DNA from: Candidatus Komeilibacteria bacterium
GTDB lineage: Bacteria > Patescibacteriota > Patescibacteriia > UBA1558 > 2-01-FULL-52-15
NCBI GenBank assembly: GCA_043801745.1
Contig: JAZDLR010000013.1
Coordinates: 9,608-73,607, forward strand
Direction: 5' to 3'
DNA length: 64,000 nt
Both the position numbers and the translations under genes were made by a program. Under the pieces are notes generated by a model. That model was not told where the DNA came from, searched no databases, and saw only the letters and a list, made by a program, of their open reading frames with translations. Below, one piece after another: positions 2,011 to 60,194 of this stretch. Every line of letters starts with the position of its first letter. Within the stretch, counting starts at the first letter, position 1.

Positions 2011-2033
2011 CCCTCTCCTTGGAAAGGAGAGGG
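2011..2033. repeat. GC-rich palindrome CCCTCTCCTT-gga-AAGGAGAGGG (family A)
   Basis: Perfect 10-bp inverted repeat between asnS and aspS, preceded by CCTCACC. The 3' arm carries an AGGAG SD-like sequence 15 nt before the aspS ATG. Confidence 0.5.
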
Positions 2034-2047
2034 AGGACAAGGAAAAT

Positions 2048-3466
2048 ATGAAAACCTACATCAACGAAACATTGAAGAAAAAAGTCGGCGAAACAATAGA
2101 GCTCGCCGGCTGGTGTCAGACTATTCGTAAAATGGGCAAGATTGCCTTTATTGATTTACGGGATTCCACTGGTTTGATTCAGGTTGTTTTGGTGCCAAAA
2201 GAAATGGCCATTGGGGCGGATATTACCAGTGATTTACGGCCGGAATTTGTGGTAAAAATAAAAGGAATTATTCAAAAACGAGACGCGAAGCAGGTTAATG
2301 AATCTTTGGCAACCGGCCAGATTGAAATTTTAGCCAAGGAAATTGTGATTTTAAGCGCCTCAGAAGTTCCGCCTTTTGAAATAGATAATGAAGAGCGTCA
2401 AGCCAATGACGAGCTGCGGTTAAAATACCGCTATTTAGATTTACGGCACGAGCGGATGAATAAGAATATGCATTTGCGCAGTGACGTGCTATTTTTCTTG
2501 AGAAATTATTTGCAGAAACTGGGCTTTATCGAAATTCAGACGCCGATTTTGTCCAAGTCTACCCCAGAGGGCGCGCGCGACTATTTAGTGCCTTCGCGTC
2601 TGCATAAAGGCAAATTTTTTGCTTTACCGCAAAGTCCGCAGCAATATAAGCAGCTTCTAATGATCGCCGGCTTTGAACGTTATTTTCAGATCGCGCCGTG
2701 TTTCCGCGATGAGGACGCGCGCGCCGACCGTAGTCCGGGCGAGTTCTATCAACTGGATATTGAAATGTCATTTGTGGAACAGGAAGATATTTTACAGCTG
2801 ACAGAGAAAATGTATACGGAAATGGTGAAAACTTTGTTTCCGGATAAGAAAGTAACTGTTAAACCCTGGCCGCGTCTTAGTCACGCTGATGCCATGAAGA
2901 AATATGGTACTGATAAACCCGATTTGAGGCAAGAGAAAAATGATCCCAATGAATTGGCTTTTGCCTGGATCGTCGATTTTCCCTTATTTACTGAACAATC
3001 GGCTGACGATAAATTTTACGGCGTTAGCGGTAAATTTGTGCCTTCGCATCATATGTTTACCGCGCCACATCCTGAGGACGTTTTGCTTCTTGATAAAGAA
3101 CCGCTGAAGGTGCGCGGACTGCAGCACGACTTAGTACTGAACGGCTATGAGGTTGGCGGCGGCAGTATCAGAATTCATGATGCGAAAATCCAGCAGAAAG
3201 TTTGGGACCTGATTGGTTTCACGGCGCAGCAGCAGAAAATGTTTAGTCACTTAATTGAAGCTTTCAAATATGGCGTACCACCGCACGGCGGAATTGCTCC
3301 GGGCATAGAACGTTTATTGATGGTTTTAGCCGGTGAGAAAAATTTGCGCGAGATTACGGCTTTTCCTTTGACCAGTGACGGTCGCGACCCCCTGATGGAT
3401 AGTCCGTCGCAGGTGACGAAAGAGCAGTTGGCTGAATTGGGGCTAAGATTGGAGAAAAAGAGTTAA
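2048..3466 (+). CDS. aspS: aspartate--tRNA ligase (short form lacking GAD insertion)
   Basis: LRYRYLDLR, QSPQQYKQLLM, FRDEDARADR and GGGSIRIHD motifs. 472 aa. Confidence 0.9.
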   Translation: MKTYINETLKKKVGETIELAGWCQTIRKMGKIAFIDLRDSTGLIQVVLVPKEMAIGADITSDLRPEFVVKIKGIIQKRDAKQVNESLATGQIEILAKEIVILSASEVPPFEIDNEERQANDELRLKYRYLDLRHERMNKNMHLRSDVLFFLRNYLQKLGFIEIQTPILSKSTPEGARDYLVPSRLHKGKFFALPQSPQQYKQLLMIAGFERYFQIAPCFRDEDARADRSPGEFYQLDIEMSFVEQEDILQLTEKMYTEMVKTLFPDKKVTVKPWPRLSHADAMKKYGTDKPDLRQEKNDPNELAFAWIVDFPLFTEQSADDKFYGVSGKFVPSHHMFTAPHPEDVLLLDKEPLKVRGLQHDLVLNGYEVGGGSIRIHDAKIQQKVWDLIGFTAQQQKMFSHLIEAFKYGVPPHGGIAPGIERLLMVLAGEKNLREITAFPLTSDGRDPLMDSPSQVTKEQLAELGLRLEKKS

Positions 3467-3566
3467 TTATTTTGTTAGGCGGTACTACTAAATTTTGCTC
3501 TAATTAGTAAGTTATTGTAAAATTACAATGTTTTTACAGGTTTTTTAATGCCTGGAAAAATTCTTT

Positions 3567-5408
3567 ATGCTAAAATATTTTACCTTAGATCAGTCCGCCA
3601 AAAAAATATTTTATTTGTTAAATAAACTAACTTTGCTGACTTTGGTGATCGTGGTTTGTATATTAATCGTGCCACGGGCGGCCCGAGCCGCAGTCGGCGA
3701 TATTGCTGTCGCCAGCACAAAAACTGAAGCATCTCTAGATTTAGGAAATGCGGTGATTCAAGTCAAATGTTACGAAGGTGATTATACTAATTTAGGAACA
3801 ACTAATGATAGTGGAGTGTTGAGCGCGACTACTCCAGATCCGGCTTCAGGTTGTGATGATAATGAAGAGCAGATGGATTATAAGGTTATTAAGGATGGCT
3901 ATGTGACACTCACGGTTACTAATGTTGCTGGAGGTTGGCAAGCATTATCATTAAATACTTTAACAATCACTGGAGTAAAATATTCCAACAAGGTTTCCGG
4001 TATTAGTTCCGATGATGGCGCGGCTTGGACTAGTGGTACGGGTGTTACTGTTAAGACCGGTAATGCTTATGGCACGACCTGTACCTTTTATTCTAATTCT
4101 TGGTACTGTGCTGTGCCCTTAGCTGATACCGCGAAAGTGATTTATGTTGCCCGGGACGGTTATGTCACTGATACAACTATTTCCTTTACAGCAGATAGAA
4201 CTGTTGCTACCGAAGCGCAACAGGTTAAGGCAGTATCCTACGTTACCTACGCCTATATGCTGGCTTCTATCGTTAATGAAGTTGGAACAGAGATCTCAAT
4301 GTTGGCCACTGCCGTGGAAATCGGTGACGAAACTGGATTAACTACCTGTGTCGCGGGGGCTGTATCTGATCCCAATGCCTATTGGTCTTGTCCGGTAGTT
4401 TTAGCTAACAGTAACGGTACGATGGTGGTTCGAGTTACGGTCAATGGTTATGTTACTAAGAATTATCCTTTGGGTGCCGGCTTTAACAGAACTAACCCTG
4501 ACGGTACTGAGGCTAGTGTTGGTGTCACGGTTGATCCGATTGAAAGTGCTTTGAAGATCACGGTTTACGATGGTGCTACTGGCACAACTGCACTTACTGG
4601 TGCCAAAGTAGAAGCTGGTGATAATTTGGCAGTCTCCTGTAACGAGAGTGCCGGGGTTTATTATTGCGCCATACCTTTAGCTAATACGGCAACTTACGCC
4701 CGGGTGGTGAAAGATGGTTATGGCACACAATCACCTACCTATACTGACCGTACAGCTGCTACTGATGCTCAAGGAACCCTGACTGTTCATATGACTACTA
4801 CTACTGGCAGCGCCGGAAATGGTGGTAGTAGCAGTGGCGGATCTGGAACCTCTACACCGCCACCGGTAATACCACCGACCACTCCAATACCTCCGGTGAC
4901 TACGCCGGAGCCTCAGCCGGTAATTACCATGCCGGCATTAGACAGAATTCAGTCCACCATTGCACGCGAGCAGGAGCGCCTGCAAGCAGTTGACATTGCT
5001 TTGCGCGACAGATTATTGGGCCGCATCTTATTACAGGTCCAGGATCATGGCGAAGCTTGGTATTTAGACCCGGTCTCCCAGGTACGGTATTATCTGGCTG
5101 ATGGTCCGACCGCTTTTCAAATGCTGCGTCAATTTGGTTTAGGTATTACTAATGCTGATCTGGCTAATATTCCAGTTGCTACCGATACATCCAATAAGCC
5201 CTTAACCGTGGCAGCAAAGAATTTGCTAGATAGGTTGAAAGGGAAAATTTTACTTCAGGTTCAAAGTCACGGTGAAGCTTGGTATATTAATCCGGTTGAC
5301 GGCAAGAGATATTACTTGAAAGATGGTGCCGCGGCTTATGAGATTATGCGGTCGCTGTCCCTGGGTATTACTGATGCTGATCTGGCGCAGATCGGATTAG
5401 GTCGGTAA
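3567..5408 (+). CDS. secreted repeat protein
   Basis: N-terminal signal/TM. Four ~100-aa modules with conserved C...Y.C..P and GYVT motifs. PT-rich linker. Two tandem ~55-aa C-terminal repeats (GEAWY..P....RYYL.DG.A...M....LGIT.ADLA.I), also repeated at nucleotide level (about 4978-5160 vs 5215-5400). Confidence 0.7.
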   Translation: MLKYFTLDQSAKKIFYLLNKLTLLTLVIVVCILIVPRAARAAVGDIAVASTKTEASLDLGNAVIQVKCYEGDYTNLGTTNDSGVLSATTPDPASGCDDNEEQMDYKVIKDGYVTLTVTNVAGGWQALSLNTLTITGVKYSNKVSGISSDDGAAWTSGTGVTVKTGNAYGTTCTFYSNSWYCAVPLADTAKVIYVARDGYVTDTTISFTADRTVATEAQQVKAVSYVTYAYMLASIVNEVGTEISMLATAVEIGDETGLTTCVAGAVSDPNAYWSCPVVLANSNGTMVVRVTVNGYVTKNYPLGAGFNRTNPDGTEASVGVTVDPIESALKITVYDGATGTTALTGAKVEAGDNLAVSCNESAGVYYCAIPLANTATYARVVKDGYGTQSPTYTDRTAATDAQGTLTVHMTTTTGSAGNGGSSSGGSGTSTPPPVIPPTTPIPPVTTPEPQPVITMPALDRIQSTIAREQERLQAVDIALRDRLLGRILLQVQDHGEAWYLDPVSQVRYYLADGPTAFQMLRQFGLGITNADLANIPVATDTSNKPLTVAAKNLLDRLKGKILLQVQSHGEAWYINPVDGKRYYLKDGAAAYEIMRSLSLGITDADLAQIGLGR

Positions 5409-5442
5409 GCAAACGGATTTCAGCAGTTATAAATGTAAATGA

Positions 5443-5490
5443 AAAGAGCGGCCGCGTTACTCACTGTTGTGAGTGTTGCGGTCGCTCTTT
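5443..5490 (-). terminator. long hairpin terminator for the island 2 genes
   Basis: AAAGAGCGGCCGC...GCGGTCGCTCTTT inverted repeat with an inner ACTCACA/TGTGAGT stem. Followed by TTTTCATTT on the minus strand. Confidence 0.45.
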
Positions 5491-5504
5491 ACGTTGTCGG
5501 CACA

Positions 5505-5600
5505 CTAGCTGTTCCATCTCCGATTCCCGATCAGTCGACTCATTAAGACCGGGACCCACAGCGGGGAAAGGATCAGAATGAAGATACCGAGAATGTCCAT
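5505..5600 (-). CDS. putative 31-aa hydrophobic peptide
   Basis: ATG preceded by GGGAGA at 5-nt spacing. Product MDILGIFILILSPLWVPVLMSRLIGNRRWNS. Below the ORF-track size cutoff, so speculative. Confidence 0.2.
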   Translation of the reverse strand: MDILGIFILILSPLWVPVLMSRLIGNRRWNS

Positions 5601-5670
5601 GGATGTCTCCCTTCTTCCTTAAAGTGCCTTTTCTGGGGTTGCTTCTTTTTTGTGCAGGTAGAGTTAGTGT

Positions 5671-6165
5671 TTAGAAGTTCTCTACCACTACACGTCTTGA
5701 CTCCCAGCGAACGTTGCCGCTGAATTCGACCGTAGCTCCATTGGTGTCTTCGAAAATGAAGCACCAACCATGGTCCGCCTCATTCAGGCCATTGAAAGAC
5801 AGGGCCTTGAGAGTGTAGCGGTTGTTGACTAGCCCAACCGGGGTCACTCCGAGCGTGATCTGGTAGGCGCCGGATATAGAGTATCCGGTTACCATGGTGA
5901 CGATGGTGATCTGCTGACTGGGAATATTCGGCCAGCAAGTAATGATTCCGCCGAATGGGTCAAGCGGTAGGCCGGCATCTTTGAACGTCTGACTCCTGAT
6001 TTGCACCAGTGCCTGGTCGTCGCTCCCGTTCATGGCCACAGTCTTGGGCTGTTGGCGGTTAATAACAAGTACACCGCCACCTCCCTGAGCCCAGGCAGGA
6101 ACCATGTTCAGACACAGAACCGCGAGAACAAGCAGTACGAGGCCGATGATTTTGGGGGTCTTCAT
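5671..6165 (-). CDS. secreted hypothetical protein (GC-rich island 2)
   Basis: Signal peptide MKTPKIIGLVLLVLAVLCLNMVPAWAQ. SD GGAGGA 6 nt upstream. ~55% GC versus AT-rich flanks. Confidence 0.55.
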   Translation of the reverse strand: MKTPKIIGLVLLVLAVLCLNMVPAWAQGGGGVLVINRQQPKTVAMNGSDDQALVQIRSQTFKDAGLPLDPFGGIITCWPNIPSQQITIVTMVTGYSISGAYQITLGVTPVGLVNNRYTLKALSFNGLNEADHGWCFIFEDTNGATVEFSGNVRWESRRVVVENF

Positions 6166-6337
6166 GAAGCGTCCTCCGTGTTTAGTGATTGGAACACTAT
6201 TGGCACAGTGATTATCGTTATCAGCTGACATTGGGTCAGCTAAGGTTGTAAGAACGTAAGATTCTAGAAAGTATCAATTTTGTGTCATTTTGTCAATCTG
6301 GGCTAATCTTGTGCTTTGGTTTAATCTATAGTTAGCC

Positions 6338-6622
6338 ATGAATTTGTCGCTATTACAGAAATATATACTTAAAGTTTGCTATGGTCAGCTCTCTTTGCCC
6401 AAGGAGTATTTTTTAGCGTTTTATCAGGGTAATAATATTGACGCAGAAACGGCCTTAAAGGATATAGGCAAAAGTATCGATCGTCTGGTTTCGCGGGATT
6501 TATTGAAAGTTTCAGGTGTCAAAACAGCGAAAAAATGGTATACTTCCACTGTGAATTTGACGTATCAGGGAGAAAAAATGGCCAAGAAATTGTTGAGTGA
6601 GCAGCCGAAGTTGTTTAGATAA
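6338..6622 (+). CDS. hypothetical protein
   Basis: 94-aa ORF in host-like composition. Confidence 0.4.
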   Translation: MNLSLLQKYILKVCYGQLSLPKEYFLAFYQGNNIDAETALKDIGKSIDRLVSRDLLKVSGVKTAKKWYTSTVNLTYQGEKMAKKLLSEQPKLFR

Positions 6623-6645
6623 TTAAACCACCCCGCCTGTCGGCA

Positions 6646-6667
6646 CCCCTCCTTGCTAAGGAGGGGA
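6646..6667. repeat. GC-rich palindrome CCCCTCCTT-gcta-AAGGAGGGG (family A variant)
   Basis: 9-bp inverted repeat preceded by ACCACCCCGCC, the same words that open the ~400-nt elements. The 3' arm supplies AGGAGG 13 nt before the GTG at 6679. Confidence 0.45.
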
Positions 6668-6678
6668 ACGCTGATACA

Positions 6679-7311
6679 GTGTCTCGGTGTAACATATTAA
6701 CCACTATGACCAACAAACAATTGATCAAAAAATTGGACGAGTGGGGCGTCGATTATGAGGTGCTGAAACACAAGACTGTGTTTACCGCTCATGATGTGGC
6801 CGCCACTCTGAAAACAAAATTAGACGAAATCGTGAAAACGCTGGTCATTGAAGCGGACAAGCGTTTTTATTTAGTGTCTTTGCCGGCCAGCAAGAATATT
6901 GATTTTAAGCAGTTGAAAAAGGTGATTAAGAAAATGGGCGGCTCGGTCAAGAGCATCGGCATTCCGAGCGAGGAAGTTTTAGTTAAGAAGCTGGGCATCA
7001 AACCCGGCGGAGTTACGGCTTTTTCTAAGTTGCATAAATTACCGCATATAATTGACCGCGATCTGAAGAAAATTAAGAAAGGTGTGTTAAGCGGCGGCAG
7101 TGTGTCAGAAAGTCTGAAAATGAAAATCGCCGACTGGATTAAAGTTGAGGAGCCGAAGGTGGAGATCATTGGTGTTAAGCGTAAAATTAAACCGGTGAAA
7201 AATAATAAAAAAGGGAAAAGCAAAGTTGTAAAGAAAAAATTAAAGATTAAGAAATCAAAACCAAAGGCGAGGAAGGTTGTGCCGAAGAGAACGAATAAGC
7301 GTCGCCGCTAG
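6679..7311 (+). CDS. YbaK/ProX-like aminoacyl-tRNA deacylase domain protein with Lys-rich tail
   Basis: DEWGVDYEVLKHKTVFTAHDVA and LVIEADKRFYLVSLPASKNIDFKQLKK resemble the YbaK/EbsC editing domain. Start could instead be the ATG at 6706. Confidence 0.55.
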   Translation: MSRCNILTTMTNKQLIKKLDEWGVDYEVLKHKTVFTAHDVAATLKTKLDEIVKTLVIEADKRFYLVSLPASKNIDFKQLKKVIKKMGGSVKSIGIPSEEVLVKKLGIKPGGVTAFSKLHKLPHIIDRDLKKIKKGVLSGGSVSESLKMKIADWIKVEEPKVEIIGVKRKIKPVKNNKKGKSKVVKKKLKIKKSKPKARKVVPKRTNKRRR

Positions 7312-7380
7312 TCTTTCCTAATCAGCTAATAAGCCAATAAGCTAATCAGCTACTAAACTACTAATCTACCAAACTATTTT

Positions 7381-8031
7381 ATGGAATCAGAACTACATTC
7401 ATTTATTAAAGATTCTCTGGCTAAAGGCCTGGCCAAAGATAAGATCCGCGAAGTATTACTTCAGGCCAATTGGGAAAAGGATGAAGTTGACGTGGCTTTA
7501 AACCGCTATGCTGACATTAACTTTCCTATTGCCGTGCCCAAGCGTAAGCCCTATTTATCCGCGCGAGAAGCCTTTATGTATCTACTGACCTATGTGACTT
7601 TGTACGTCAGCTCATTTAATTTAGGCGCTTTGATTTATCAGTTTATTAACCGCGCTTTTCCGGATGCGACTATTCCGGTTGGTCAGCTCTATGATGCTGC
7701 GGTTAATCCTTCGGGTATCCGCTTTAATTTAGCCTCGCTGATTATTGCTTTTCCGATTTACCTTTGGCTGACCATTATTCTCAATCGCAGCGCGGCGAAA
7801 AATCCGGAAGCCCGTAGTTCCCGCGTACGCAAGTGGCTGACTTATTTGACGCTATTCGTCACTGTCGGCGTCATGATCGGCGATTTGATCGCCTTGCTCA
7901 ATCGTTTGTTCAATGGCGATATTACTATGCGCTTTGGCTTGAAGTTCCTCACGGTGCTGGTCATTGCTGGAGTAGTCTTTGTTTATTATTTGCGCGATCT
8001 GCGTAAGGAGGAAACTACTAATGCTAAATAA
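7381..8031 (+). CDS. membrane protein
   Basis: Soluble N-terminus followed by 4 predicted TM helices. DUF5671-like in my recollection. Confidence 0.5.
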   Translation: MESELHSFIKDSLAKGLAKDKIREVLLQANWEKDEVDVALNRYADINFPIAVPKRKPYLSAREAFMYLLTYVTLYVSSFNLGALIYQFINRAFPDATIPVGQLYDAAVNPSGIRFNLASLIIAFPIYLWLTIILNRSAAKNPEARSSRVRKWLTYLTLFVTVGVMIGDLIALLNRLFNGDITMRFGLKFLTVLVIAGVVFVYYLRDLRKEETTNAK

Positions 8032-8479
8032 AATTTTATTTTGGGTAGCAATCGCCGTAGTAGCAGCTGCTATTGTCGGCGGATTTATGCTCAGTGGTTC
8101 GCCCCAGCAGGCGCGAAAAACTAATCTGGATGACAGCCGCGTCAGTTCATTATCGCAAATTAACACGGCAATTAATCTTTTTTATGATAATAAAAAAGTG
8201 TTACCCCAATTATTGAGTGAATTGCAGCAGCAGCCGGTTTATTATGTGAGTATGATTACTGATCCGGTTACGGCCGTTCCGTTCGAGTATAAGATTACTG
8301 GTGCTACCACCTATGATTTATGTGCTACGTTTGATCTGGCTTCGGACCAAAGTTCAAATCTGCCCGTTGATCCTTATTACAACGGCTCCACTTTTTGGCA
8401 GCATCCGGCCGGAAATTATTGTTATCATTTAGAAGTTTATAGCGCCAACAAAGATGTAACACCACTGCCAGTTAAATAA
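8021..8479 (+). CDS. membrane-anchored hypothetical protein
   Basis: AGGAGG 10 nt upstream of the ATG at 8021. N-terminal TM MLNKILFWVAIAVVAAAIVGGFML. Confidence 0.5.
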   Translation: MLNKILFWVAIAVVAAAIVGGFMLSGSPQQARKTNLDDSRVSSLSQINTAINLFYDNKKVLPQLLSELQQQPVYYVSMITDPVTAVPFEYKITGATTYDLCATFDLASDQSSNLPVDPYYNGSTFWQHPAGNYCYHLEVYSANKDVTPLPVK

Positions 8480-8483
8480 ATAA

Positions 8484-9209
8484 TTGATGCATAAAGTCAG
8501 TCTGGAACAATTTGAAGGACCACTAGACCTACTCCTGCAGCTCATTGAGCAGCAGGAGTTGGATATTACCACCGTTTCTTTGGCCCATGTGACGGATCAA
8601 TATCTGCAGTATTTGGAGAAATTAGAGCAGATAGTGCCGGAAGAAGTAGCGGATTTTTTGTTAGTGGCCTCCAAATTGATTTACCTCAAGTCTAAATACT
8701 TATTGCCTAATTTAACTATTGCTGATGAGCAGGACGCTACTGATCTGGAGCGGCAATTAAAGATGTATCAGCAGTATTATGAGGCCAGTAAGGTTATTGA
8801 GCAGATGATTGCCAAGCGGAGGTTTACTTTTGTCCGCGAACATCCTCTGAAAGTCAAGTTTGAGCAGGAATTCACACCGCCTCCGGCCCTGAAATTGACT
8901 GATCTGTCTACAGCTATGCGTTCAGTAATTGAGCGCCTGGGCGAGATTAAAATCCTGCCGCGTATTATGATGGCTAGGGCTGTGAGTATCAAGGAGCGGA
9001 TTCAGCATTTCCGCGAGCTGCTGACCAAAAATATCAAGCTCAGCTTTGACCGTTTTCACGATAAAGACAACAAAGTTGATACCATCGTTAGTTTTTTGGC
9101 GCTATTGGAATTAGTTAAACAGCGTTTTGTCACAGTGGAACAAGAAAATTTATTTACGGAAATAACCATTTGTTCTAATCCTTTACAACAACCCAAACTC
9201 AATGAATAA
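8484..9209 (+). CDS. scpA: segregation and condensation protein A
   Basis: FEGPLDLLLQLIEQQELDIT N-terminus typical of ScpA. Followed by scpB. Confidence 0.8.
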   Translation: MMHKVSLEQFEGPLDLLLQLIEQQELDITTVSLAHVTDQYLQYLEKLEQIVPEEVADFLLVASKLIYLKSKYLLPNLTIADEQDATDLERQLKMYQQYYEASKVIEQMIAKRRFTFVREHPLKVKFEQEFTPPPALKLTDLSTAMRSVIERLGEIKILPRIMMARAVSIKERIQHFRELLTKNIKLSFDRFHDKDNKVDTIVSFLALLELVKQRFVTVEQENLFTEITICSNPLQQPKLNE

Positions 9210-9786
9210 GTCATCTTTGGCCAGTTCAATTGAAAGTTTATTGCTGGTTTCCGCTAAGCCCTTGTCTTTTCGGGAATTAGCCCAATTAACCCAGAGTGGG
9301 ACTGACGAAGTGGCTGCTGCTGTGACGCAATTGCAGAGTAAATTTAATGATGCCGTTGGCGGTATCCGTTTGCTAGTAAACGATAAACGGGCGCAGTTAG
9401 CAACTGATGCTGGTCAGACCAAGTTGATCAAGGCTTACTTGCAGTCGGAAATCACCGGAGAATTAACCCGCCCTAGCTTGGAGACCTTAACAATAGTAGC
9501 TTACCGCCAGCCGGTGACGAAGGAGGAATTGGAGCAAATTAGAGGCGTTAATTGCAGTTTGATTTTGCGTAATTTAATGATCCGTGGCTTGGTGGAGCCC
9601 CGGGAAGCCAAAGGAGGCCTGACAACTGATTACAGTGTTACTATGGATTTTTTGCGTTTCTTGGGGATTACAAAAGTTGAAGAGCTGCCTGATTATGAGC
9701 GGCTGCATAGTCATGAAAATATCCAGGCAGTGCTAGACCAGAAACAAGCCGAGGAGAGCGAGGTTAGTCATGATACGGTTAGCTAA
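9202..9786 (+). CDS. scpB: segregation and condensation protein B
   Basis: ScpB-like winged-helix repeats. Overlaps scpA by 8 nt. Confidence 0.8.
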   Translation: MNKSSLASSIESLLLVSAKPLSFRELAQLTQSGTDEVAAAVTQLQSKFNDAVGGIRLLVNDKRAQLATDAGQTKLIKAYLQSEITGELTRPSLETLTIVAYRQPVTKEELEQIRGVNCSLILRNLMIRGLVEPREAKGGLTTDYSVTMDFLRFLGITKVEELPDYERLHSHENIQAVLDQKQAEESEVSHDTVS

Positions 9787-10444
9787 ATTTTTAGCCTTGG
9801 CCGGTATTGCCAGCCGGCGGGAAGCTGAGCAGTTGATTACAGCCGGTAAGGTTTTGGTCAATGGCAAGCCGCACCTGGAGCTGGGCCGTCCGATTGATGA
9901 AAATAGAGATGTCGTTGTCTTTCGTGGCCAACCAGTGAGAGCTGAAGCCAAAGTTTACTATTTAGTGCACAAGCCGATCGGTTATCTATCGGCCAATAAG
10001 GATAGTTACACGGATCTGGTAGTTACTAAGCTGGTTCCTATTCAGCCAAAAGTTTATCCGGTGGGTCGTCTGGATAAAGATTCCAGCGGCTTAATGTTGT
10101 TAACTAATGATGGTGATTTAACTTATCAGCTGACTCATCCTAAGTTTGCCGTTGAAAAAGAATATGAAGTAACCACCGATAAACCGGTTACGGCGGCTTT
10201 GTTGGCGGATTTAAAAAAGGGAGTGAAATTGGCTGAGGGATTGGCGGTTATTGATAACGGTAAAATTATTGGTCCGAAAAAATTCAGTCTGACTTTGCAT
10301 CAGGGCTGGAACCGGCAAATTCGTCGGATGTTAGGTCACTTAGGTATTGGCGTAGTTGGTTTAGTCCGGGTCCGGGAGGGAAATCTGAAATTAGGTAGTT
10401 TGCCTGTGGGCAAGTATAAAAAAATTACCCAGCCGCATTTATGA
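9770..10444 (+). CDS. rluB: pseudouridine synthase, RsuA/RluB family
   Basis: S4 domain (IASRREAEQLITAGKVLVNG) plus the catalytic motif GRLDKDSSGLMLLTNDG. Confidence 0.8.
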   Translation: MIRLAKFLALAGIASRREAEQLITAGKVLVNGKPHLELGRPIDENRDVVVFRGQPVRAEAKVYYLVHKPIGYLSANKDSYTDLVVTKLVPIQPKVYPVGRLDKDSSGLMLLTNDGDLTYQLTHPKFAVEKEYEVTTDKPVTAALLADLKKGVKLAEGLAVIDNGKIIGPKKFSLTLHQGWNRQIRRMLGHLGIGVVGLVRVREGNLKLGSLPVGKYKKITQPHL

Positions 10445-11391
10445 CCAGTTTCGTACAATTTTGCGCGGCCATCATTACTCTGTTAGGCTTATCTCTAAGC
10501 CAAACGCCGCAGCTTTATACTTTAGTCTGGCATGAGCGGGCCGAACCGGTGGGTTCTGTCTGGACTTGGAGTAAACAATCAACAGTTGGAGCTCCGGTGA
10601 AAATTAATAGGGATTCTTTAGGTGTGGCGGTCGCAGCGCCGACAGCGATTATTATCGACGGTCAGAGCGGTGCTACGCTCTGGGAGAAAAATCCGGCCGA
10701 TGTCCGCGCCATTGGCAGTATTACTAAACTCATGTCAGTGTTAGTTTTCTTAGATCATAATCCTGGCTGGAATACAGTTGTCACCATTACAGCCGCAGAT
10801 CAAGCGAACGACGGCAGAAGTAACTTTGTGGTTGGCGAACAAATTAAAGTCCGGGATTTATTGGCTGCCAGTCTGATCCCGTCTGATAATGACGCGACGC
10901 AGACTCTGGCGCGGATTAGCGGTCTGTCATCAGAGGACTTTGTGAAAGCCATGAACGATAAAGCCCGCAGTTTAGGCATGACGCAGACGGTTTTCACCGA
11001 ACCGACCGGCCTGTCAGCTGATAATGTCTCCACTGCCCGCGAAGTAATAGTTTTTGCTCGGGAAGCTTTTGCCCGCCCGGAAATTGCCGTTTTTGTCAGC
11101 GATAAGGAATATCAATTTACTTCCGTAAGTGGTCAGCAACATCGATTAAAATCCACCAATAAACTTTTCGGCTCTATTATTGGTATTAAACAAGCCAAGA
11201 CTGGTTTTATTGATCAGGCTGGTCATTGTATGGTGGCCAAAGTTGAGGATAAAGGGCGAATTATTTTTACCGCTGTGCTGGGAGCGCCAACTGATGCCGA
11301 CCGTTTTCAAGATACTAAAATGTTAAGCTATTGGGCTTTTCATAATTGGCGTTGGCCCCAAGAGGCTAATCCGCCGCAGTTAGTGCTATAA
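10441..11391 (+). CDS. D-alanyl-D-alanine carboxypeptidase (PBP5/DacA family)
   Basis: SITK, SDN and KTG active-site motifs with an N-terminal signal peptide. Confidence 0.75.
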   Translation: MTSFVQFCAAIITLLGLSLSQTPQLYTLVWHERAEPVGSVWTWSKQSTVGAPVKINRDSLGVAVAAPTAIIIDGQSGATLWEKNPADVRAIGSITKLMSVLVFLDHNPGWNTVVTITAADQANDGRSNFVVGEQIKVRDLLAASLIPSDNDATQTLARISGLSSEDFVKAMNDKARSLGMTQTVFTEPTGLSADNVSTAREVIVFAREAFARPEIAVFVSDKEYQFTSVSGQQHRLKSTNKLFGSIIGIKQAKTGFIDQAGHCMVAKVEDKGRIIFTAVLGAPTDADRFQDTKMLSYWAFHNWRWPQEANPPQLVL

Positions 11392-11396
11392 TATCA

Positions 11397-12161
11397 GTGA
11401 TGAAACCTCTGATTATCGGCAATTGGAAAATGAACTTAAGCCTGCAGGAGGCCGTGTCTTTGGCGCGTTCCGTGCGCCAACGTTTAGTTTTGAATCGGTC
11501 AGGCAATAAAGCGGAAGTAGTTCTGTGTCCCAGCTTTGAGGCCCTGGTTTCAGTAAAGAAGGTGTTGGGTCGCGGTCAGATTGAGTTGGGTGGTCAGGAC
11601 GTTTTTTGGCAAGCTTACGGACCGTTTACCGGTGAAGTGACGGCGCAGAATTTAGCCGACTTAGGTTGTCGCTATGTGATTGTCGGACATTCGGAACGAA
11701 GGCAGCATTTGGCGGAAACTAATGAGATGATTAACCGTAAGGTCAAGGCCGTGCTAGAAGCTGGTATGATTCCAATTCTCTGCGTGGGCGAAACTATTGA
11801 AGAACGCCGCGAGCAGCAGCAAGATTTAACAGTGATGACGCAAATTATTGAAGGCTTAGCCGGTATTCAATTAACCGCCGACCAATCATTAGTCATCGCT
11901 TACGAACCAGTCTGGGTTATTGGTTCTGGTCAAGCCATCAATCCGCCCGAAGCTGGTCGTATGAGTTGGGTGGCACGGCAGGCTTTAATTGATATTTTTC
12001 CTCTGACTACGGTGCAGCAGCAAACCAGGATTATTTATGGCGGCAGCGTTGATGACGTCAATATTAAAAGTTTTCATGATTTAGAATTGATCAGCGGTTT
12101 TTTAGTCGGCGGATCTAGTCTAGATAGTCATAAATTTATTGATTTAATTAAAGCACTCTAA
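11397..12161 (+). CDS. tpiA: triosephosphate isomerase
   Basis: IGNWKMN, VIVGHSERR and AYEPVWVIGSG motifs. Confidence 0.9.
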   Translation: MMKPLIIGNWKMNLSLQEAVSLARSVRQRLVLNRSGNKAEVVLCPSFEALVSVKKVLGRGQIELGGQDVFWQAYGPFTGEVTAQNLADLGCRYVIVGHSERRQHLAETNEMINRKVKAVLEAGMIPILCVGETIEERREQQQDLTVMTQIIEGLAGIQLTADQSLVIAYEPVWVIGSGQAINPPEAGRMSWVARQALIDIFPLTTVQQQTRIIYGGSVDDVNIKSFHDLELISGFLVGGSSLDSHKFIDLIKAL

Positions 12162-13054
12162 TGATTGAAGATTTATTGTTGACAGTCCGCAAAGCGCAAA
12201 AAAAGCATTATGCCATCCCGGCTTTCAATGTTTCTGATTTGGAAATGGTGCAGGCCATAATCCGTGCGGCCGTGAAAATGAAGTCACCGGTCATTGTTCA
12301 GACTAGTGAATCAGCCTTAAAATACGCCGGTGCTAAAACTCTGGCTATGATTATTAGTTCAGTGGCCGCGGATATTGGTCAAGCTGTGCCGGTGGCAATT
12401 CATTTGGATCATGGCAAACATCAGGCGGTCATTAATCAGTGTTTGCGTAATGGTTTTAATTCTGTGCACCGTGATGCTTCGGAATTGCCTTTAGCTAAAA
12501 ATATCGCAGCCACGAGAAAAACAGTTTTGGCCGCCAGGAAATTTAAGGCCCGCGTCCAGGGAGAATTAGGAGCCATTTTTGGCCTGGAAGGTTTAACTAA
12601 ATTGAAGCAGGGCTTTGATCAGCGGCAGATGATGACAGATCCGCGGCAAGTCAAGGAATTTGTCGGCAGGACTGGAATTGATACTCTGGCTATTTCAGTC
12701 GGTACTATTCACGGATCGTTTAAAGGCGTGGAACATATAGATGTTAAGCTGATCAAAGCTATTGCTCGAGAAGTAACGACTCCTTTAGTTTTGCACGGTG
12801 GTTCTGGCAATGATCCGCGGCAAATTAAAGCTGCTATTAAAGCTGGCGTCTGCATTATTAATGTGGACACGGATTTGCGTTTAGCCTTGGTTAGCGGCAT
12901 GCGCCGTGCCTTGAAAAAACCCAGTAAAGCTGGTAAGGTTGACCCTCGCGCAATTTTGTTAGAATCATACGCGCCCATGCAGGCGGAAGCCGAGCGGCTG
13001 ATGAAATTGTTTGGCAGCGCGGGTCGAGCTCAGCTCGATGCGGGTCGAGCTTAA
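12161..13054 (+). CDS. fba: fructose-bisphosphate aldolase class II
   Basis: Class II aldolase architecture (AIPAFNV, HLDHG, LVLHGGSG). Confidence 0.85.
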   Translation: MIEDLLLTVRKAQKKHYAIPAFNVSDLEMVQAIIRAAVKMKSPVIVQTSESALKYAGAKTLAMIISSVAADIGQAVPVAIHLDHGKHQAVINQCLRNGFNSVHRDASELPLAKNIAATRKTVLAARKFKARVQGELGAIFGLEGLTKLKQGFDQRQMMTDPRQVKEFVGRTGIDTLAISVGTIHGSFKGVEHIDVKLIKAIAREVTTPLVLHGGSGNDPRQIKAAIKAGVCIINVDTDLRLALVSGMRRALKKPSKAGKVDPRAILLESYAPMQAEAERLMKLFGSAGRAQLDAGRA

Positions 13055-13055
13055 T

Positions 13056-13940
13056 ATGATTTGGAACTATTTATTTATCGCTCTGATAATCGTTTCGGCC
13101 GGTTATTTACTGTCCCTTTTTTGGCGTCAGCGTAAGATGCTGGCCACTATTAATGTGGAGCGCGTCCCCGGCGTCAAGGATCAGCAAGTTAAAAGTCGTT
13201 TGTTAGAAGCTAAGTTGAAGCGGACCATTGGCGAACACTGGGGTAATGCACGCCGTTTTATCGGTTGGCATCCACGGAAATTATCTGACAGTATAAAATT
13301 CCTGCAGCAGCGCTTACAACAGTTAGAACGCGAGTACCGCCGGATTATTCATAAAGATCTGTCGTCCGAAGTGAAGAAGAGTAAAGCGATTGAAGATTTA
13401 TTGATTGGTGCCCGCACTTATTTGGATCAAGGTGAATATGCTAAAGCGGAAGAGGTTTTGATTGACGCCTTGTCACTCAATGATCATAACGTGGAAGCTT
13501 ACTTTATTTTGGCGCGGGTTTATCAAGGCAAGAAAGAATTAGATCATGCCCGTGAAACTCTGGAATATCTTTTGCGTCTGACTCATAATGAAGATCCTCA
13601 AGTTTTTGAGCAAATGGCCGCTTTATCTCTGGAGCGTGGCAATTTGAAGGAAGCAGAGGAGGAATATTTGCGTTCCATTTCTTTGGATGAAAATAATTAT
13701 CTTTATTATTTTGAGCTGGCCGGTATTTACCGTGATATGGAAGAATTAGTTCAGGCTTTGGAAATAGCCAAGAAGGCTTTGGTATTGGCGCCTAATAATC
13801 CCAAGATTTTAGATTTTCTAATTGAGCTGGCCATTGCGCAACAGGATAAAATTGAAGCTAAACAGTATCTGGAACGGTTAATGGAAGTTAATCCGGATAA
13901 TAATAAGATTGAAGATTTCCGGCAGAGGATTGAGGGTTAG
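13056..13940 (+). CDS. TPR-repeat membrane-anchored protein
   Basis: N-terminal TM then several TPR-like repeats. ATG directly after the fba stop. Confidence 0.6.
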   Translation: MIWNYLFIALIIVSAGYLLSLFWRQRKMLATINVERVPGVKDQQVKSRLLEAKLKRTIGEHWGNARRFIGWHPRKLSDSIKFLQQRLQQLEREYRRIIHKDLSSEVKKSKAIEDLLIGARTYLDQGEYAKAEEVLIDALSLNDHNVEAYFILARVYQGKKELDHARETLEYLLRLTHNEDPQVFEQMAALSLERGNLKEAEEEYLRSISLDENNYLYYFELAGIYRDMEELVQALEIAKKALVLAPNNPKILDFLIELAIAQQDKIEAKQYLERLMEVNPDNNKIEDFRQRIEG

Positions 13941-13987
13941 AAGTTAGAAGTTTGGAGTAAGAAGTAGGGGCAGATTTTTTATTCGTA

Positions 13988-14015
13988 TTGACAGTAATTA
14001 CCAATCTGCTAAGTT
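13988..14015 (+). promoter_or_regulatory. sigma70-like promoter upstream of the riboswitch
   Basis: TTGACA, 16-nt spacer, TAAGTT. Confidence 0.35.
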
Positions 14016-14034
14016 AACCGTACAACTAAATTAA

Positions 14035-14178
14035 TTACGTATCCAGAGAGTAGAGATGCTAAGGGACCGGCCCGATGCTCTACCTGCAACCAATTAAGTT
14101 TGGTGCAAATTCCGTCCTCATGAGTGGGGCGAAGATGCTTAAATGTTTTGGATACGTCGCAATTACAGCGACTTTTTT
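14035..14178 (+). promoter_or_regulatory. SAM-I (S-box) riboswitch with terminator expression platform
   Basis: Matches SAM-I conserved words: GGGAC.GGCCCGATG (K-turn region), GCAACCA...GGTGCAAATTCC (P3/J3-4), ATGAG and GATGCTTAA pairing with the 5' TTACGTATC (P1). Followed by terminator GTCGC-aattaca-GCGAC-TTTTTT. Confidence 0.65.
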
Positions 14179-14214
14179 CATATATAAGCGCCAATTCGAC
14201 GTACTATAAACAGT

Positions 14215-14249
14215 ATCACGCTATCTTTGTGGGGAACGTGATTTTTTTG
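14215..14249 (+). terminator. second intrinsic terminator
   Basis: ATCACG...CGTGAT stem followed by TTTTTTT. Confidence 0.45.
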
Positions 14250-14310
14250 TTGCAGTTCTTTTACATCATCTCCAATGTGCTGACAGTGCTTCATCTGACT
14301 GGAGGAAAAT

Positions 14311-14487
14311 ATGAAACGAAAGGTGCTCAAACAGACCGGATTGTCCGTTGACGAAACGCGAAGGGCGCTTAAAAGTGAAGATCCTGTTAAGATCGGATCT
14401 GGGCTGAAAGACCCAGTTTCCATTTTGATGCTAATTAAGCAGGTGGCATCCAGAAGGAGGAGTAAGACAAAACAGCACACAAACTGA
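14311..14487 (+). CDS. 58-aa basic hypothetical protein downstream of the SAM riboswitch
   Basis: Strong SD GGAGGA 5 nt before the ATG. Product MKRKVLKQTGLSVDETRRALKSEDPVKIGSGLKDPVSILMLIKQVASRRRSKTKQHTN. Absent from the ORF track because it is under 60 aa. Confidence 0.4.
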   Translation: MKRKVLKQTGLSVDETRRALKSEDPVKIGSGLKDPVSILMLIKQVASRRRSKTKQHTN

Positions 14488-14530
14488 AGGCGAATTACAT
14501 TTACGTTTAGTATCCCGCCTTTAGTTATCG

Positions 14531-14567
14531 AGCGGCATGTCCATCATGGGTGTGCCGCTTTTCTATT
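14531..14567 (+). terminator. intrinsic terminator after the small ORF
   Basis: AGCGGCA...TGCCGCT stem followed by TTTCTATT. Confidence 0.4.
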
Positions 14568-14599
14568 AAAAAAAACAGCCGATGAGGTTGTTTTTTTAA

Positions 14600-14686
14600 T
14601 GGTGGGCCGGGTAGGGTTCGAACCTACGAAGGCGCAAGGCCAGCAGATTTACAGTCTGCCCCGTTTGACCACTTCGGTACCGACCC
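14600..14686 (-). tRNA. tRNA-Tyr(GTA)
   Basis: Cloverleaf with anticodon loop CTGTAAA, long variable arm, GGTTCGAACC T-arm and encoded CCA. Confidence 0.85.
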
Positions 14687-14802
14687 ATAAGCCAAAGGCT
14701 TATTATTTTTGATTGTAAAAGATTTTTGTCTCTTATTGTGGGCCCTTGGCCCATGGAGCCGAGAATCCCGCAAAACTATTTCGTCAACTCTTATTTTAAT
14801 TT

Positions 14803-14878
14803 TGGAGCCATCCGTCGGAATCGAACCGACGACCTACGGTTTACAAAACCGTTGCTCTACCAGCTGAGCTAGGATGGC
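14803..14878 (-). tRNA. tRNA-Thr(TGT)
   Basis: GCCATCC acceptor, anticodon loop TTTGTAA, T-arm GGTTCGATTCC, encoded CCA. Confidence 0.85.
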
Positions 14879-15024: not shown

Positions 15025-15031
15025 TATTCGC

Positions 15032-50508: not shown

Positions 50509-50539
50509 AAGATTAAAACTTATTATTAACCCCCTCTAG

Positions 50540-50560
50540 CTCCCCCTTGGAAAGGGGGAG
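50540..50560. repeat. GC-rich palindrome CTCCCCCTT-gga-AAGGGGGAG (family A variant)
   Basis: 9-bp inverted repeat shortly after the dnaJ stop. Confidence 0.45.
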
Positions 50561-50585
50561 ATTCAAGGATGCAGAATTGTTAAGA

Positions 50586-50622
50586 TTGGCTAAAATAGGC
50601 CATTTTCTTTAATTTTAGCCAA
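50586..50622. promoter_or_regulatory. 11-bp inverted repeat TTGGCTAAAAT-N15-ATTTTAGCCAA upstream of the island 4 promoter
   Basis: Perfect AT-rich inverted repeat ending 9 nt before the -35. Operator-like. Confidence 0.4.
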
Positions 50623-50630
50623 TATAGCTA

Positions 50631-50659
50631 TTGACAAAATATCTGATATTAGATATAAT
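50631..50659 (+). promoter_or_regulatory. consensus sigma70 promoter for the island 4 gene
   Basis: TTGACA, 17-nt spacer, TATAAT, perfect consensus. Confidence 0.55.
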
Positions 50660-50686
50660 ACGATAATACCCAAAGTGGGTAATCGT
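50660..50686 (+). promoter_or_regulatory. palindrome ACGATAATACCCA-aag-TGGGTAATCGT at about +1..+27 of the island 4 transcript
   Basis: Imperfect 11/12-bp inverted repeat directly after the -10. An operator or 5'-UTR hairpin. Confidence 0.35.
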
Positions 50687-52449: not shown

Positions 52450-52452
52450 AAA

Positions 52453-52885
52453 CAGATAAGCCACCCCGCCTTGGCGGGGTGTGTTCGTTTTAAAGCGTAG
52501 CTCTTGAAGTACACATAGAAGGCGAAGAAACGGAAGGACAAGCTCTGCTCTTAGCAACTCAAATCATCCGATCTTTCTAGTTGTCCGCATACTAAGGATT
52601 GGCTTTGTTATACCCCTCGCCCCCTCGGCTTCGCTCGGGGCAGGCTTGAGGCCCTACTTTTGTAACCAAAAGTAGGGAAAAGTTTCGGGGGCGCGTAAGT
52701 CGCGTGGGTCTTTTCAGCTTAATCTTGCTTGTCGTGGCTATCAGTACGCGACCCCAAACCCCCTAAAAGATAAAATTAGCAGGTGTTGATTAAACAGTAG
52801 CGTTCTTACCTTTATCATATCAACTTAGGCCGCTACCGTAGGCAGCTAGAACAGAAACCTTCAGCGTTTAAGCTGAAGGTATGTT
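52453..52885 (+). ncRNA. copy 2 of the ~400-nt structured intergenic element
   Basis: Same 5' 45 nt (CAGATAAgCCACCCCGCCTTGGCGGGGTGTGTtCGTTTTAA). H3 is CCTACTTTTG/CAAAAGTAGG, the long-range helix is GGGGGCGCG/CGCGACCCC, and H5 is CCTTCAGC/GCTGAAGG. All are compensatory relative to copy 1. Confidence 0.4.
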
Positions 52886-58580: not shown

Positions 58581-58655
58581 GACTTTTTTGTCAGTTTTTG
58601 GTTATAATTGTACCTAACTTGCCTTGAGCAAGTTTATTTATTACTATAGTAGTCT

Positions 58656-60146
58656 ATGGCTGTCTTATACCGTAAATATCGGCCCCAAAAATTTGCCACT
58701 GTGGTGGGTCAAAACCATATTAAAACCACTCTAGCGGGCGAGATTATTAGTGGTCACTTAGCGCATGCTTATTTATTTGTTGGTCCGAGGGGTACGGGGA
58801 AAACAACTTTAGCTCGTCTGTTTGCCCGGGCTATTAATTGCTTGGAGCGTCCTAAAGATTCAGCGGAGCCCTGCAATAAATGTGCTATTTGTCAGCAGAT
58901 TATGTCCGGCCGTTCGCTGGATATAATTGAGATTGATGCGGCTACTCATACCCAGGTAGATAATGTCCGGGCTAATATTATCGCCAATGCCCAAGTGCCG
59001 CCGTATAACAGTAAGGGGTATAAAGTTTTTGTTATTGATGAAGTTCACATGTTGTCTAAGGCGGCGTTTAACGCCTTGTTAAAAACTATGGAAGAGCCGC
59101 CGGAACGGGTGATTTTTATTTTAGCAACAACTGAAGTGCGTAAAGTGCCGGAAACTATTATTTCCCGTTGTCAGCGTTTTGATTTCAAGAAAATTCCTAC
59201 GGCCTCAATCATTGAACGGTTACAGTCCATTGCCAACCAAGAACAAATTATTATACCGGCCGAAGTACTGGCGGCCGTGGCCCGTCGGTCCGAAGGAGGA
59301 ATGCGTGACGCCGAATCAATTTTGGGCCAAATTGTTGGCTTGGCTGAAGATAAGAAAGTGACGGAGGAAATAGCTTATCTGGTTCTGCCGCGTAGCAATT
59401 GGAATGATGTGGAGATTTTTCTGGAAAATTTGCAGGTCCGCAATGTGCAGCAGGCCCTGAAGCACTTGCATCAATTAGTCAGAGAAGGAATTGACGTGGA
59501 TGATCTGGCGGCTGATCTGGTGGAGTACACCAGACAGATTTTGCTGGCGCAGGCCATGGGATTGGCTTATGATCCGGATATTGAGCAGCAACGGATTGCT
59601 AAAATCAGGGAATTGGCTGGACGCTTCAGCACCAAAGAATTAGTTAATTTATTAGAAGTATTTTTGGACAAAGCAGCAGAGACTAAATCGGCTATGATAC
59701 CGCAGCTGCCCTTGGAATTGGGCATAGTTGAATTCTGCCAGGACGCCGTGATGGCTGCCGAGCCAATAGTAGAGAGGGTTGTGACGGAAGCGCCGGATTC
59801 CCAGACAGCAGCTGTTATGACTACTGGTTCCTGGAATGCTATTTTAGACGCCATGAAGCCCCTGAATCATTCCTTATCGGCTTTTATGAAAGTCGGTCAC
59901 CCAATTAGTTTGGAAAAGGGCATTTTAACTATAGGTTTTGAATACGATTTTCACGCCGAACGTGTGCGTGAAAGCAAAAATAAACAGACAGCTCAACAAA
60001 TTATTGGCGACGTTTTGGGTCAGCCAGTTACTATTCAGGCGATTGTGGATAAGGATTATCAAGCCAATCATCAGAAATTTAACGGCGGTAAGGATAAAGA
60101 AGTGGAGGAGGTATTGGGAGCTCTGGGCGGTGGGGAAATGGTTTGA
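58656..60146 (+). CDS. dnaX: DNA polymerase III subunit gamma/tau
   Basis: AAA+ clamp-loader motifs (GPRGTGKTT, zinc module CNKCAICQQI, SRC motif). Confidence 0.85.
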   Translation: MAVLYRKYRPQKFATVVGQNHIKTTLAGEIISGHLAHAYLFVGPRGTGKTTLARLFARAINCLERPKDSAEPCNKCAICQQIMSGRSLDIIEIDAATHTQVDNVRANIIANAQVPPYNSKGYKVFVIDEVHMLSKAAFNALLKTMEEPPERVIFILATTEVRKVPETIISRCQRFDFKKIPTASIIERLQSIANQEQIIIPAEVLAAVARRSEGGMRDAESILGQIVGLAEDKKVTEEIAYLVLPRSNWNDVEIFLENLQVRNVQQALKHLHQLVREGIDVDDLAADLVEYTRQILLAQAMGLAYDPDIEQQRIAKIRELAGRFSTKELVNLLEVFLDKAAETKSAMIPQLPLELGIVEFCQDAVMAAEPIVERVVTEAPDSQTAAVMTTGSWNAILDAMKPLNHSLSAFMKVGHPISLEKGILTIGFEYDFHAERVRESKNKQTAQQIIGDVLGQPVTIQAIVDKDYQANHQKFNGGKDKEVEEVLGALGGGEMV

Positions 60147-60160
60147 ATCAGGTTGTAGGA

Positions 60161-60194
60161 ATTACCGCCCACAGGGCGGTCGCCCTGTGGACGA
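60161..60194. repeat. GC-rich palindromic insertion (family B) flanked by 10-bp direct repeats GGTTGTAGGA / GGTTGTAGGT
   Basis: ATTACCGCCCACAGGGCGGTCGCCCTGTGGACGA with the stem CCACAGGGCG/CGCCCTGTGG. Flanking repeats at 60151-60160 and 60195-60204 look like target-site duplications. Confidence 0.5.

Follow-up and report, generated by a model that had tools for sequence, protein, structure and literature searches.

Miniature nested-palindrome repeats in a Komeilibacteria genome: probable mobile elements with a module common to many phyla and phages

Several kinds of small repeat are known that consist largely of palindromes. Families of repetitive extragenic palindromic (REP) elements are reportedly lineage-specific and vertically inherited. 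Rickettsia palindromic elements are reportedly 100-150 bp long and confined to Rickettsia, where they are said to be selfish and able to lie in frame in protein genes, with which they can be translated. The small dispersed repeats of Nostoc are said to be hairpin-forming mobile repeats of 21-27 nt that occur nested and were first noticed in a tRNA intron; reportedly, they are found in the Nostocaceae only. The GC clusters of yeast mitochondria form GC-rich palindromic islands in AT-rich spacers, and short target duplications have been reported for them. Miniature inverted-repeat transposable elements (MITEs; Nezha, Correia/NEMIS and RUP are examples) are dispersed, lack coding capacity, have terminal inverted repeats and are given as 70-300 bp long. 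The REP elements of proteobacteria, together with bacterial interspersed mosaic elements (BIMEs) and REPINs, lie in spacers as short imperfect palindromes that stand alone or are paired in inverted doublets (Bertels and Rainey 2011, PMC3116915; Di Nocera et al. 2013, PMC3733652). Also relevant is whalefall-1 (Rfam RF01762), a stand-alone small RNA with 16 members that was described from whale-fall metagenomes only and was rated by its authors as certainly an RNA (Weinberg et al. 2010, PMC2864571). This article concerns two families of GC-rich palindromes, Family A and Family B, in a stretch of 64,000 nt of Candidatus Komeilibacteria bacterium (Patescibacteriota; metagenome-assembled genome, assembly GCA_043801745.1, contig JAZDLR010000013.1, positions 9,608 to 73,607), hereafter called the window. 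These elements are probably miniature, non-autonomous nested-palindrome repeats, selfish or semi-domesticated, of the same kind as REP/BIME elements, Rickettsia palindromic elements and MITEs. The general kind of feature is a known one, but its taxonomic reach is unexpectedly wide and its link to an Rfam motif was previously unrecognised.

The palindromes of the window

Family A is modular. In its full plan, there is an arm, (A)ACCTCACCCC, a main hairpin, CCCTCTCCTT-NNN-AAGGAGAGGG, an optional small GC-rich hairpin and sometimes a closing arm, GGGGTGAGGT; in the complete forms the small hairpin stands between the main hairpin and the closing arm. The consensus of 102 non-redundant half-modules is (A)ACCTCACCCC, 2-4 nt, (C)CCCTCTCCTT-NNN-AAGGAGAGGG(G), which is fitted exactly by the first copy in the window, A1 (Table 1). 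A scan of the 64 kb for hairpins centred on CTT-NNN-AAG found exactly five, all belonging to Family A and at the places given in a preliminary description of this DNA, against 0.76 expected in shuffled sequence. That description allowed loops of 3-4 nt and a single stem: all five loops are of 3 nt, and three copies have the stem described, whereas the other two have different stems that are still perfectly complementary, so that there are three stems in the window (CCCTCTCCTT, CCCCTCCTT and CTCCCCCTT), each perfectly matched by its partner. Among eight Komeilibacteria copies, four of the ten stem pairs have changed on both sides and 92.5% of the cells are paired, a value reached by none of 500 shuffles.

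Single half-modules, a module with an extra hairpin and an inverted doublet all occur in the window. A1 and the two halves of the doublet A3 (A3a, and A3b on the minus strand) are each preceded by (A)ACCTCACC(CC). On the minus strand, A2 runs from the main hairpin through the small hairpin with a GACA loop to GGGGTGGTT, which is the architecture of two loci from Bacteroidota (L005 and L029; numbers of this form denote loci from other genomes). The arm of A2 and its small hairpin, GCC-TGTC-GGC, are what had been taken at this place for a third motif. The composite A3 is indeed bounded by the outer inverted repeat that had been described, TACCTCACC / GGTGAGGTA, but this repeat consists of the arms of the two inverted half-modules, which can close the whole composite as an outer stem (folding energy -55.4 kcal/mol, z=-5.7); doublets of the same architecture are present in L118, L095 and L035. 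Family A, this outer repeat and the third motif, which had been listed as separate families, thus represent modules of a single type of element.

The core of Family B is a double hairpin of 30 nt, CCGCCCA-NN-GGGCGG and then TCGCCC-TGT-GGGCGA, in which two 13-nt copies stand inverted, 2 nt apart; B1 and B2 are one element in opposite orientations. With a 22-base pattern, four more copies were found in metagenome contigs with 37-51% GC, and none in a scan of viral contigs. All six copies lie at unrelated sites: between two pilin genes (B1), after dnaX (B2, between the stop codon and a hairpin at 60218-60250), between nusG and rplK, upstream of a lexA-like gene, near a tRNA-Leu gene, and, beside a tRNA-Val gene, in the D-loop of a tRNA-like sequence. 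Orthology of the sites was considered and rejected, L124 being the nusG/rplK spacer and L121 the site upstream of the lexA-like gene.

Both palindromes of Family B in the window are flanked by the direct repeats previously noted, GAGTAATA of 8 nt and GGTTGTAGG of 9 nt plus A or T. In four of the six copies, namely those in AT-rich DNA, the order is the same: direct repeat, AT-rich leader, core ending in CGA, direct repeat. The repeats of these four are 9, 8, 6 and 8 nt long (the last with one mismatch), and the length of the duplication is therefore not fixed; the two GC-rich copies have no flanking repeat. When the longest flanking repeat was compared with that at random positions in the same sequence (p values in Table 1), the combined value was p=9e-6, and the target-site duplications of Family B are therefore real, variable in length and part of an asymmetric element. 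That chance in low-complexity DNA produced both the similarities and the flanking repeats deserves next to no credence. Although the flanks are AT-rich, the exact repeat in L124 is only 7 nt long (p=0.05) and two copies have none, this explanation is refuted by the shuffles, by the position controls (both window copies included) and by the recurrence of the hairpin together with its arm across genomes.

Table 1. Palindromic features of the window, two oriented Family B copies from other genomes, and the state of the orthologous spacers in relatives
Feature	Position	Strand	Composition	Spacer compared	State in relatives
A1, half-module	1998-2033	+	arm AACCTCACCCC, linker GA, hairpin CCCTCTCCTT-GGA-AAGGAGAGGG (2011-2033)	asnS/aspS	absent in L131, L129
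A2, module	6627-6666	-	plus-strand letters: arm ACCACCCC, GCC-TGTC-GGC, A, hairpin CCCCTCCTT-GCT-AAGGAGGGG (6646-6666)	94-aa open reading frame/ybaK-like gene	present in L129/L130 (TAACCTCACCCACCCTCTCCTTGATAAGGAGAGG...GGTGAG); absent in L131
A3, composite	22152-22267		two inverted half-modules, 22152-22185 (+; hairpin 22163-22185) and 22232-22267 (-; hairpin 22232-22254); 46-nt spacer	C39 peptidase/lexA	absent in L161-L163 (terminator continues into the lexA promoter)
A4, variant	50528-50560	+	arm-like AACCCCCTC, TAG, hairpin CTCCCCCTT-GGA-AAGGGGGAG (50540-50560)	downstream of dnaJ	missing from L125-L128, in which the real terminator and next promoter are kept
B1	39006-39059	-	direct repeat GAGTAATA (39006-39013 and 39052-39059), 30-nt core (39014-39043), AT-rich leader (39044-39051); oriented: repeat TATTACTC, leader AATTAAT, p=0.008	pilin/pilin	genes 2 nt apart in L126
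B2	60151-60203	+	direct repeat GGTTGTAGG (60151-60159 and 60195-60203), leader AATTA (60160-60164), core CCGCCCACAGGGCGGTCGCCCTGTGGACGA (60165-60194); p=0.003
Family B copy in L121			oriented: repeat TACTTT, leader TAACTTTA, p=0.001
Family B copy in L124			oriented: repeat ACATTTAT / AAATTTAT, leader AGTTTA, p=0.05
Third-motif hairpin	31360-31380	+	CCACCCCGCC-TTGG-CGGGGTG; 5' end of ~400-nt element el1 (~31345-31745)
Third-motif hairpin	52461-52481	+	CCACCCCGCC-TTGG-CGGGGTG; 5' end of ~400-nt element el2 (~52450-52877)
Insert, 54 nt, GC-rich and palindromic	14935-14988	-	CCACCGCC-TTTG-GCGGGGT, TCCCGCC, AT-rich loop, GGCGGGA

Distribution across phyla and turnover among relatives

These repeats are not confined to one lineage. 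Family A is common, almost letter for letter, to several phyla and to phages. An exact scan of one genome per species with the pattern CCTCTCCTT-NNN-AAGGAGAGG yielded at least 120 loci from many phyla, where chance would account for about 9 sites (the genome of the window was not among the first 120 loci, and its own copy counts are those of the 64-kb window). The matches are in Nostocales, Bacteroidota, Ignavibacteria, several groups of Patescibacteria, Chloroflexi, Armatimonadota, Verrucomicrobia, Nitrospirales, Elusimicrobia and one Bathyarchaeia genome assembled from a metagenome; isolate genomes among them are those of Calothrix NIES-267, Scytonema UTEX 2349 and Gracilimonas DSM 21985. 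The arm, as ACCTCACC upstream or GGTGAGGT downstream, lies within 70 nt of the hairpin in 132 of the 136 genome hits listed (~97%). In viral contigs, the hairpin was found in 29 stretches, and 34 of 35 viral hits carry the arm. A BLAST search of plasmids with the full module gave no more than one weak match, probably owing to the low-complexity filter.

The module occurs in very different surroundings. In Nostocales (L009, L006, L036, L044, L047, L073, L074 and L106), it is central in a larger inverted-repeat element, the arms of which contain ..GAGTGCAATACA.. and ..TGTATTGCACTC.., and is thus nested inside a MITE-like host. A contig of a Mu-like phage (L133, IMG/VR, 7283 bp) has five modules, at 1909, 3754, 4410, 6609 and 7218, two of which are in frame: one in the gene for the large terminase, in the linker just before the nuclease domain (read as PLSFPRRGAGGEV), and one in a Mu F-like gene, inside the match to the Pfam domain Phage_Mu_F (read as PLSLPRRGDGGEV). 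In several other genomes the module lies within open frames, the longest of which has 2,666 codons. A contig of 567 bp (L019) is a near-perfect inverted repeat around its middle and contains three copies; it is most likely an assembly artefact, and these copies should not be taken as independent.

The relatives available for comparison are Komeilibacteria with 58-91% protein identity in the orthologues used (DnaJ 62-75%, AspRS 74-76%, LexA ~91%) and conserved gene order. All ten window proteins tested at 90% identity were singleton clusters and, hence, no close strain is present in the collections. The spacers of the relatives are too diverged to align with those of the window; the comparison therefore gives the presence or absence of an element rather than the exact empty site. 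On this basis, copies are absent at four of the five orthologous spacers compared (A1, the A3 composite, A4 and B1). The relatives have copies of their own at spacers that are empty in the window, between dus and corA (L126) and between ybaK and a DUF5671 gene (L129), and the copy in L126 has a stem identical to that of A2, CACCCCTCCTT...AAGGAGGGGAA, at a non-orthologous locus. This is the turnover of a dispersed repeat, and the view of the preliminary description, that the repeats form real families that behave as dispersed, insertion-type DNA, is borne out.

The same spacers bear on the question of termination, because the palindromes had been said to lie often at terminator positions. This is loosely true, in that the elements are stable GC-rich hairpins in spacers downstream of stop codons, and some closed modules of cyanobacteria are flanked by A-runs and T-runs. 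In the window, no element is followed directly by a T-run, and the list of terminator-like hairpins for positions 1-20000 (the part of the window that was scanned, which covers A1 and A2) includes none of them. A3 is preceded by a terminator-like hairpin and followed by the lexA promoter, which includes a LexA box, and A4 lies between the dnaJ stop codon and a terminator with a T-run, a separate hairpin that is kept in all the relatives compared, from which A4 is absent. Intrinsic terminator function is ruled out by the lack of T-runs and by these separate, conserved hairpins beside the elements. A1 and B1 lie between co-directional genes only 56-78 nt apart, and sequences of 36 nt that are nearly identical across phyla would not be expected of terminators. 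It is thus very improbable that the palindromes are terminators or attenuators that are alike merely through the features that all terminators share.

How do the two families compare with the repeats described previously? Like REP, BIME and REPIN elements, those of the window are short palindromes in spacers that occur singly or as inverted doublets (the composite at 22152-22267 resembles a REPIN), form mosaics of modules, lie inside operons and may have the role in mRNA stability that has been proposed for REP. The differences are that the consensus of the 102 half-modules lacks a GTAG or CGTC tag, its unpaired end being AACCTCACCCC; that no domain of a RAYT (Y1 HUH transposase) is encoded among 50 open reading frames (ORFs) of the window; and that Family A is common to phyla and phages. 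The in-frame copies in the phage terminase and Mu F-like genes and in long open frames elsewhere recall the Rickettsia palindromic elements, but no copy in the window is in frame. As in MITEs, the elements are dispersed and without coding capacity, the composite has terminal inverted repeats that extend into its hairpins, and Family B has inverted halves and, in four of its six copies, target-site duplications of variable length; Family B with its leader is, however, only 35-38 nt long and asymmetric, with the leader on one side, Family A has no duplication, and no parent insertion sequence with matching ends was found. Many hits of the module are in Nostocales, inside larger inverted-repeat elements, a likeness to the Nostoc small dispersed repeats that is one of description only. 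The GC clusters of yeast mitochondria, from a different domain of life, provide an analogy and nothing closer.

The third motif and other features of the window

The third motif of the preliminary description is an arm-type stem that closes on a tiny loop, and 15 nt of it are identical to the flank of A2. It stands, as described, at the head of both ~400-nt elements, and its first arm is also present at 6628-6637; the copy in a pseudo-tRNA is a variant, with a TTTG loop. This last copy is part of the 54-nt insert, which interrupts a decayed tRNA-Thr copy (~15024-14905, minus strand) precisely in its anticodon. The flanks of the insert match the intact tRNA-Thr(UGU) gene at 14878-14803 over 28 nt and 16 nt, without duplication, and the intact gene, 60 nt away, thus represents an empty site for the insert. 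The decayed copy has lost its T-arm and stands between the genes for tRNA-Trp and the intact tRNA-Thr. In a relative (L131, 16430-16762), there are at least three pseudo-tRNA units in tandem with homologous inserts, one of which has extra hairpins nested within it. None of the pseudo-tRNA units was called a tRNA by ARAGORN.

The two ~400-nt elements, el1 and el2, are noncoding and 76% identical, and 13 of 80 predicted pairs keep their pairing through changes on both sides. Each begins just after an upstream terminator. Neither matches any Rfam family, and a conserved piece of them was found neither in viral contigs nor in any of the loci retrieved from other genomes. They are absent from the orthologous spacers of the relatives: L161 and L163 have 65-104 nt from the CAP-domain gene to the OLD-like ATPase gene, and L126 and L127 have ~60 nt, with no such element, from the unknown gene to dus. 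They resemble insertions or duplications, specific to the lineage, of a structured RNA gene or of a mobile noncoding element.

The genes of the window are core genes: asnS, aspS, scpAB, tpiA, fba, lexA, a dinB-like gene and a sortase gene, together with type IV pilus genes, hrcA-grpE-dnaK-dnaJ, dus, corA and dnaX. At the gathering score, the only Rfam matches in the window are tRNAs. In the tRNA cluster, a GC-rich island (~50% or more) at 15270-15900 contains a minus-strand ORF of 187 aa without a Pfam match; the tRNA genes there are on the minus strand of a region that is otherwise plus-strand.

Two long perfect hairpins, at 60218-60250 and 63588-63622, lie between convergent genes and have the outer letters AACGGCC...GGCCGTT in common; around the second, the 5' flank is rich in A and the 3' flank in T. 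Both are probably bidirectional terminators, and their common ends may be due to chance. Downstream of dnaJ, at 50575-50660, there is a terminator (GGCTA, an A-rich loop, AGCC and T's), followed by a promoter (TTGACA, ~17 nt, a TATAAT-like box) and then ACCCA; this layout is kept in L125-L128, and the gene that comes next has no Pfam match. L162 comes from the same assembly (GCA_964540995.1) as L125, the closest relative by DnaJ. Its C39 peptidase/lexA spacer measures 433 nt and includes, at 9640-9900, a GC-rich segment with long complementary stretches (gccccgactcc...ggagtcggggc), which neither the window nor two other relatives have and which may be another inserted structured element.

Mobile repeat or structured RNA

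Among the families of Rfam, whalefall-1 is the nearest to Family A, no copy of which reaches the threshold of any Rfam family. In both, with letters that partly agree, a CUCUCC-loop-GGAGAG hairpin comes first, then a variable hairpin closed by a stable loop and, last, GGGUGAGG; among the seed sequences of whalefall-1, UCACCUCUCCUUUAGGAGAGG...GGGUGAGGAU is nearly a Family A module. The same architecture is seen in A2 on the minus strand (CCCCUCCUU-AGC-AAGGAGGGG, UGCC-GACA-GGCG, then GGGUGGUU), and many loci are like it. Differences are that whalefall-1 lacks the 5' ACCTCACC arm and that Family A is a dispersed repeat in many phyla. The best covariance score for whalefall-1 was 21.9 bits (L048) against a gathering score of 37, and the window segments 6600-6710 and 22130-22290 gave no match even at E<=10; thus, the resemblance is one of design, not of membership. 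A literature search with the literal DNA and RNA strings of the elements found nothing relevant.

Family A could on these grounds be a functional structured RNA akin to whalefall-1, either a small RNA or a cis-acting element of untranslated regions, that is selected and does not move. Its arms contain the strings AAGGAG and CCUCC-like, as read from the sequence, which would mimic Shine-Dalgarno/anti-Shine-Dalgarno pairing, and the element could in this way act on ribosome binding or on the decay of mRNA. Such a function would also account for the shared layout, with the score of L048 and the seed sequence, and for the rating of whalefall-1 as an RNA by its authors; for stems that co-vary; for a small hairpin with varied stems and GNRA-like loops in one fixed orientation; for the orientation bias relative to genes; and for the conservation of A2 at one orthologous site. 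The window copies themselves, with no whalefall-1 match, fit it poorly, and across phyla it is the stems rather than the loops and junctions that are constant, which is unusual for a structured RNA. The surroundings of the copies are of every kind, either orientation occurs, and some copies are nested in other repeats or lie in frame in genes; four of the five in the window put the whalefall-like strand antisense to the genes, and no gene was found to be associated with the module at 120 loci. An RNA that is selected in place is therefore unlikely as the whole explanation, but it is a live rival, and one that does not exclude a mobile repeat.

Several observations weigh against the interpretation of the elements as mobile repeats. 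No transposase, recombinase or HUH-nuclease domain was found in the 50 window ORFs scanned, and clustering of the ORFs that neighbour the module at 120 loci revealed no recurrent protein family beside it, so that we infer movement rather than demonstrate it. Target-site duplication does not extend to Family A, since in 59 complete modules elsewhere the flanking repeats are no longer than expected by chance. Of 61 small hairpins, 33 have a loop that begins with G and closes with A, the orientation being fixed, and the orientation of the module relative to genes has a bias of ~2:1 (p=0.016). Either observation would suit selection on the RNA, whether added to pure selfishness or in place of it. 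Some copies are old, A2 being kept at an orthologous site in two lineages. Finally, at the protein identities given above, the relatives are too distant for a true alignment of empty sites.

If the elements are mobile repeats, as is probable, they would presumably be moved by a trans-acting enzyme encoded outside the window. Copies of Family A are gained and lost between related Komeilibacteria and settle in transcribed spacers, either within operons or between a stop codon and the true terminator, where a stable hairpin is tolerated and, by analogy with REP, may protect the mRNA upstream. Family B would insert with a target duplication of 6-9 bp and with its short AT-rich leader on one side.

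The near identity of Family A across phyla, at least one archaeal genome and phages implies horizontal spread, strong sequence-specific constraint, or both. A bolder reading, for which we would claim no more than a minority chance, is that the ACCTCACCCC/CCCTCTCCTT module is one ultra-small mobile hairpin of ~36-60 nt, spread horizontally over much of the bacterial tree, at least one archaeon and phages, which lands in spacers, in other repeats and in frame in essential genes, and of which the whalefall-1 'small RNA' is a member. Two features, the GNRA-like loops fixed in orientation and, in the companion Family B, the variable-length duplications with their AT-rich leader, would hint that an RNA form of this hairpin matters for its spread or persistence.

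Small palindromic repeats are usually treated as lineage-specific curiosities, yet here a unit of ~36 nt is nearly exact from a bacterium of the candidate phyla radiation to Nostocales, Bacteroidota, Chloroflexi, Armatimonadota and phages. Should a single mechanism move the module, that mechanism would be broad in host range; if the module is kept by function instead, it would be a very widespread RNA or DNA signal without a name in databases. Either way, whalefall-1 would be re-read as part of a dispersed repeat, and the module would be a source of spurious peptide insertions and of mis-called ORFs of the type PLSLPRRGxGGEV. Patescibacteria genomes are expected to carry few repeats; in these small, streamlined genomes, the elements would provide markers for recent genome change.

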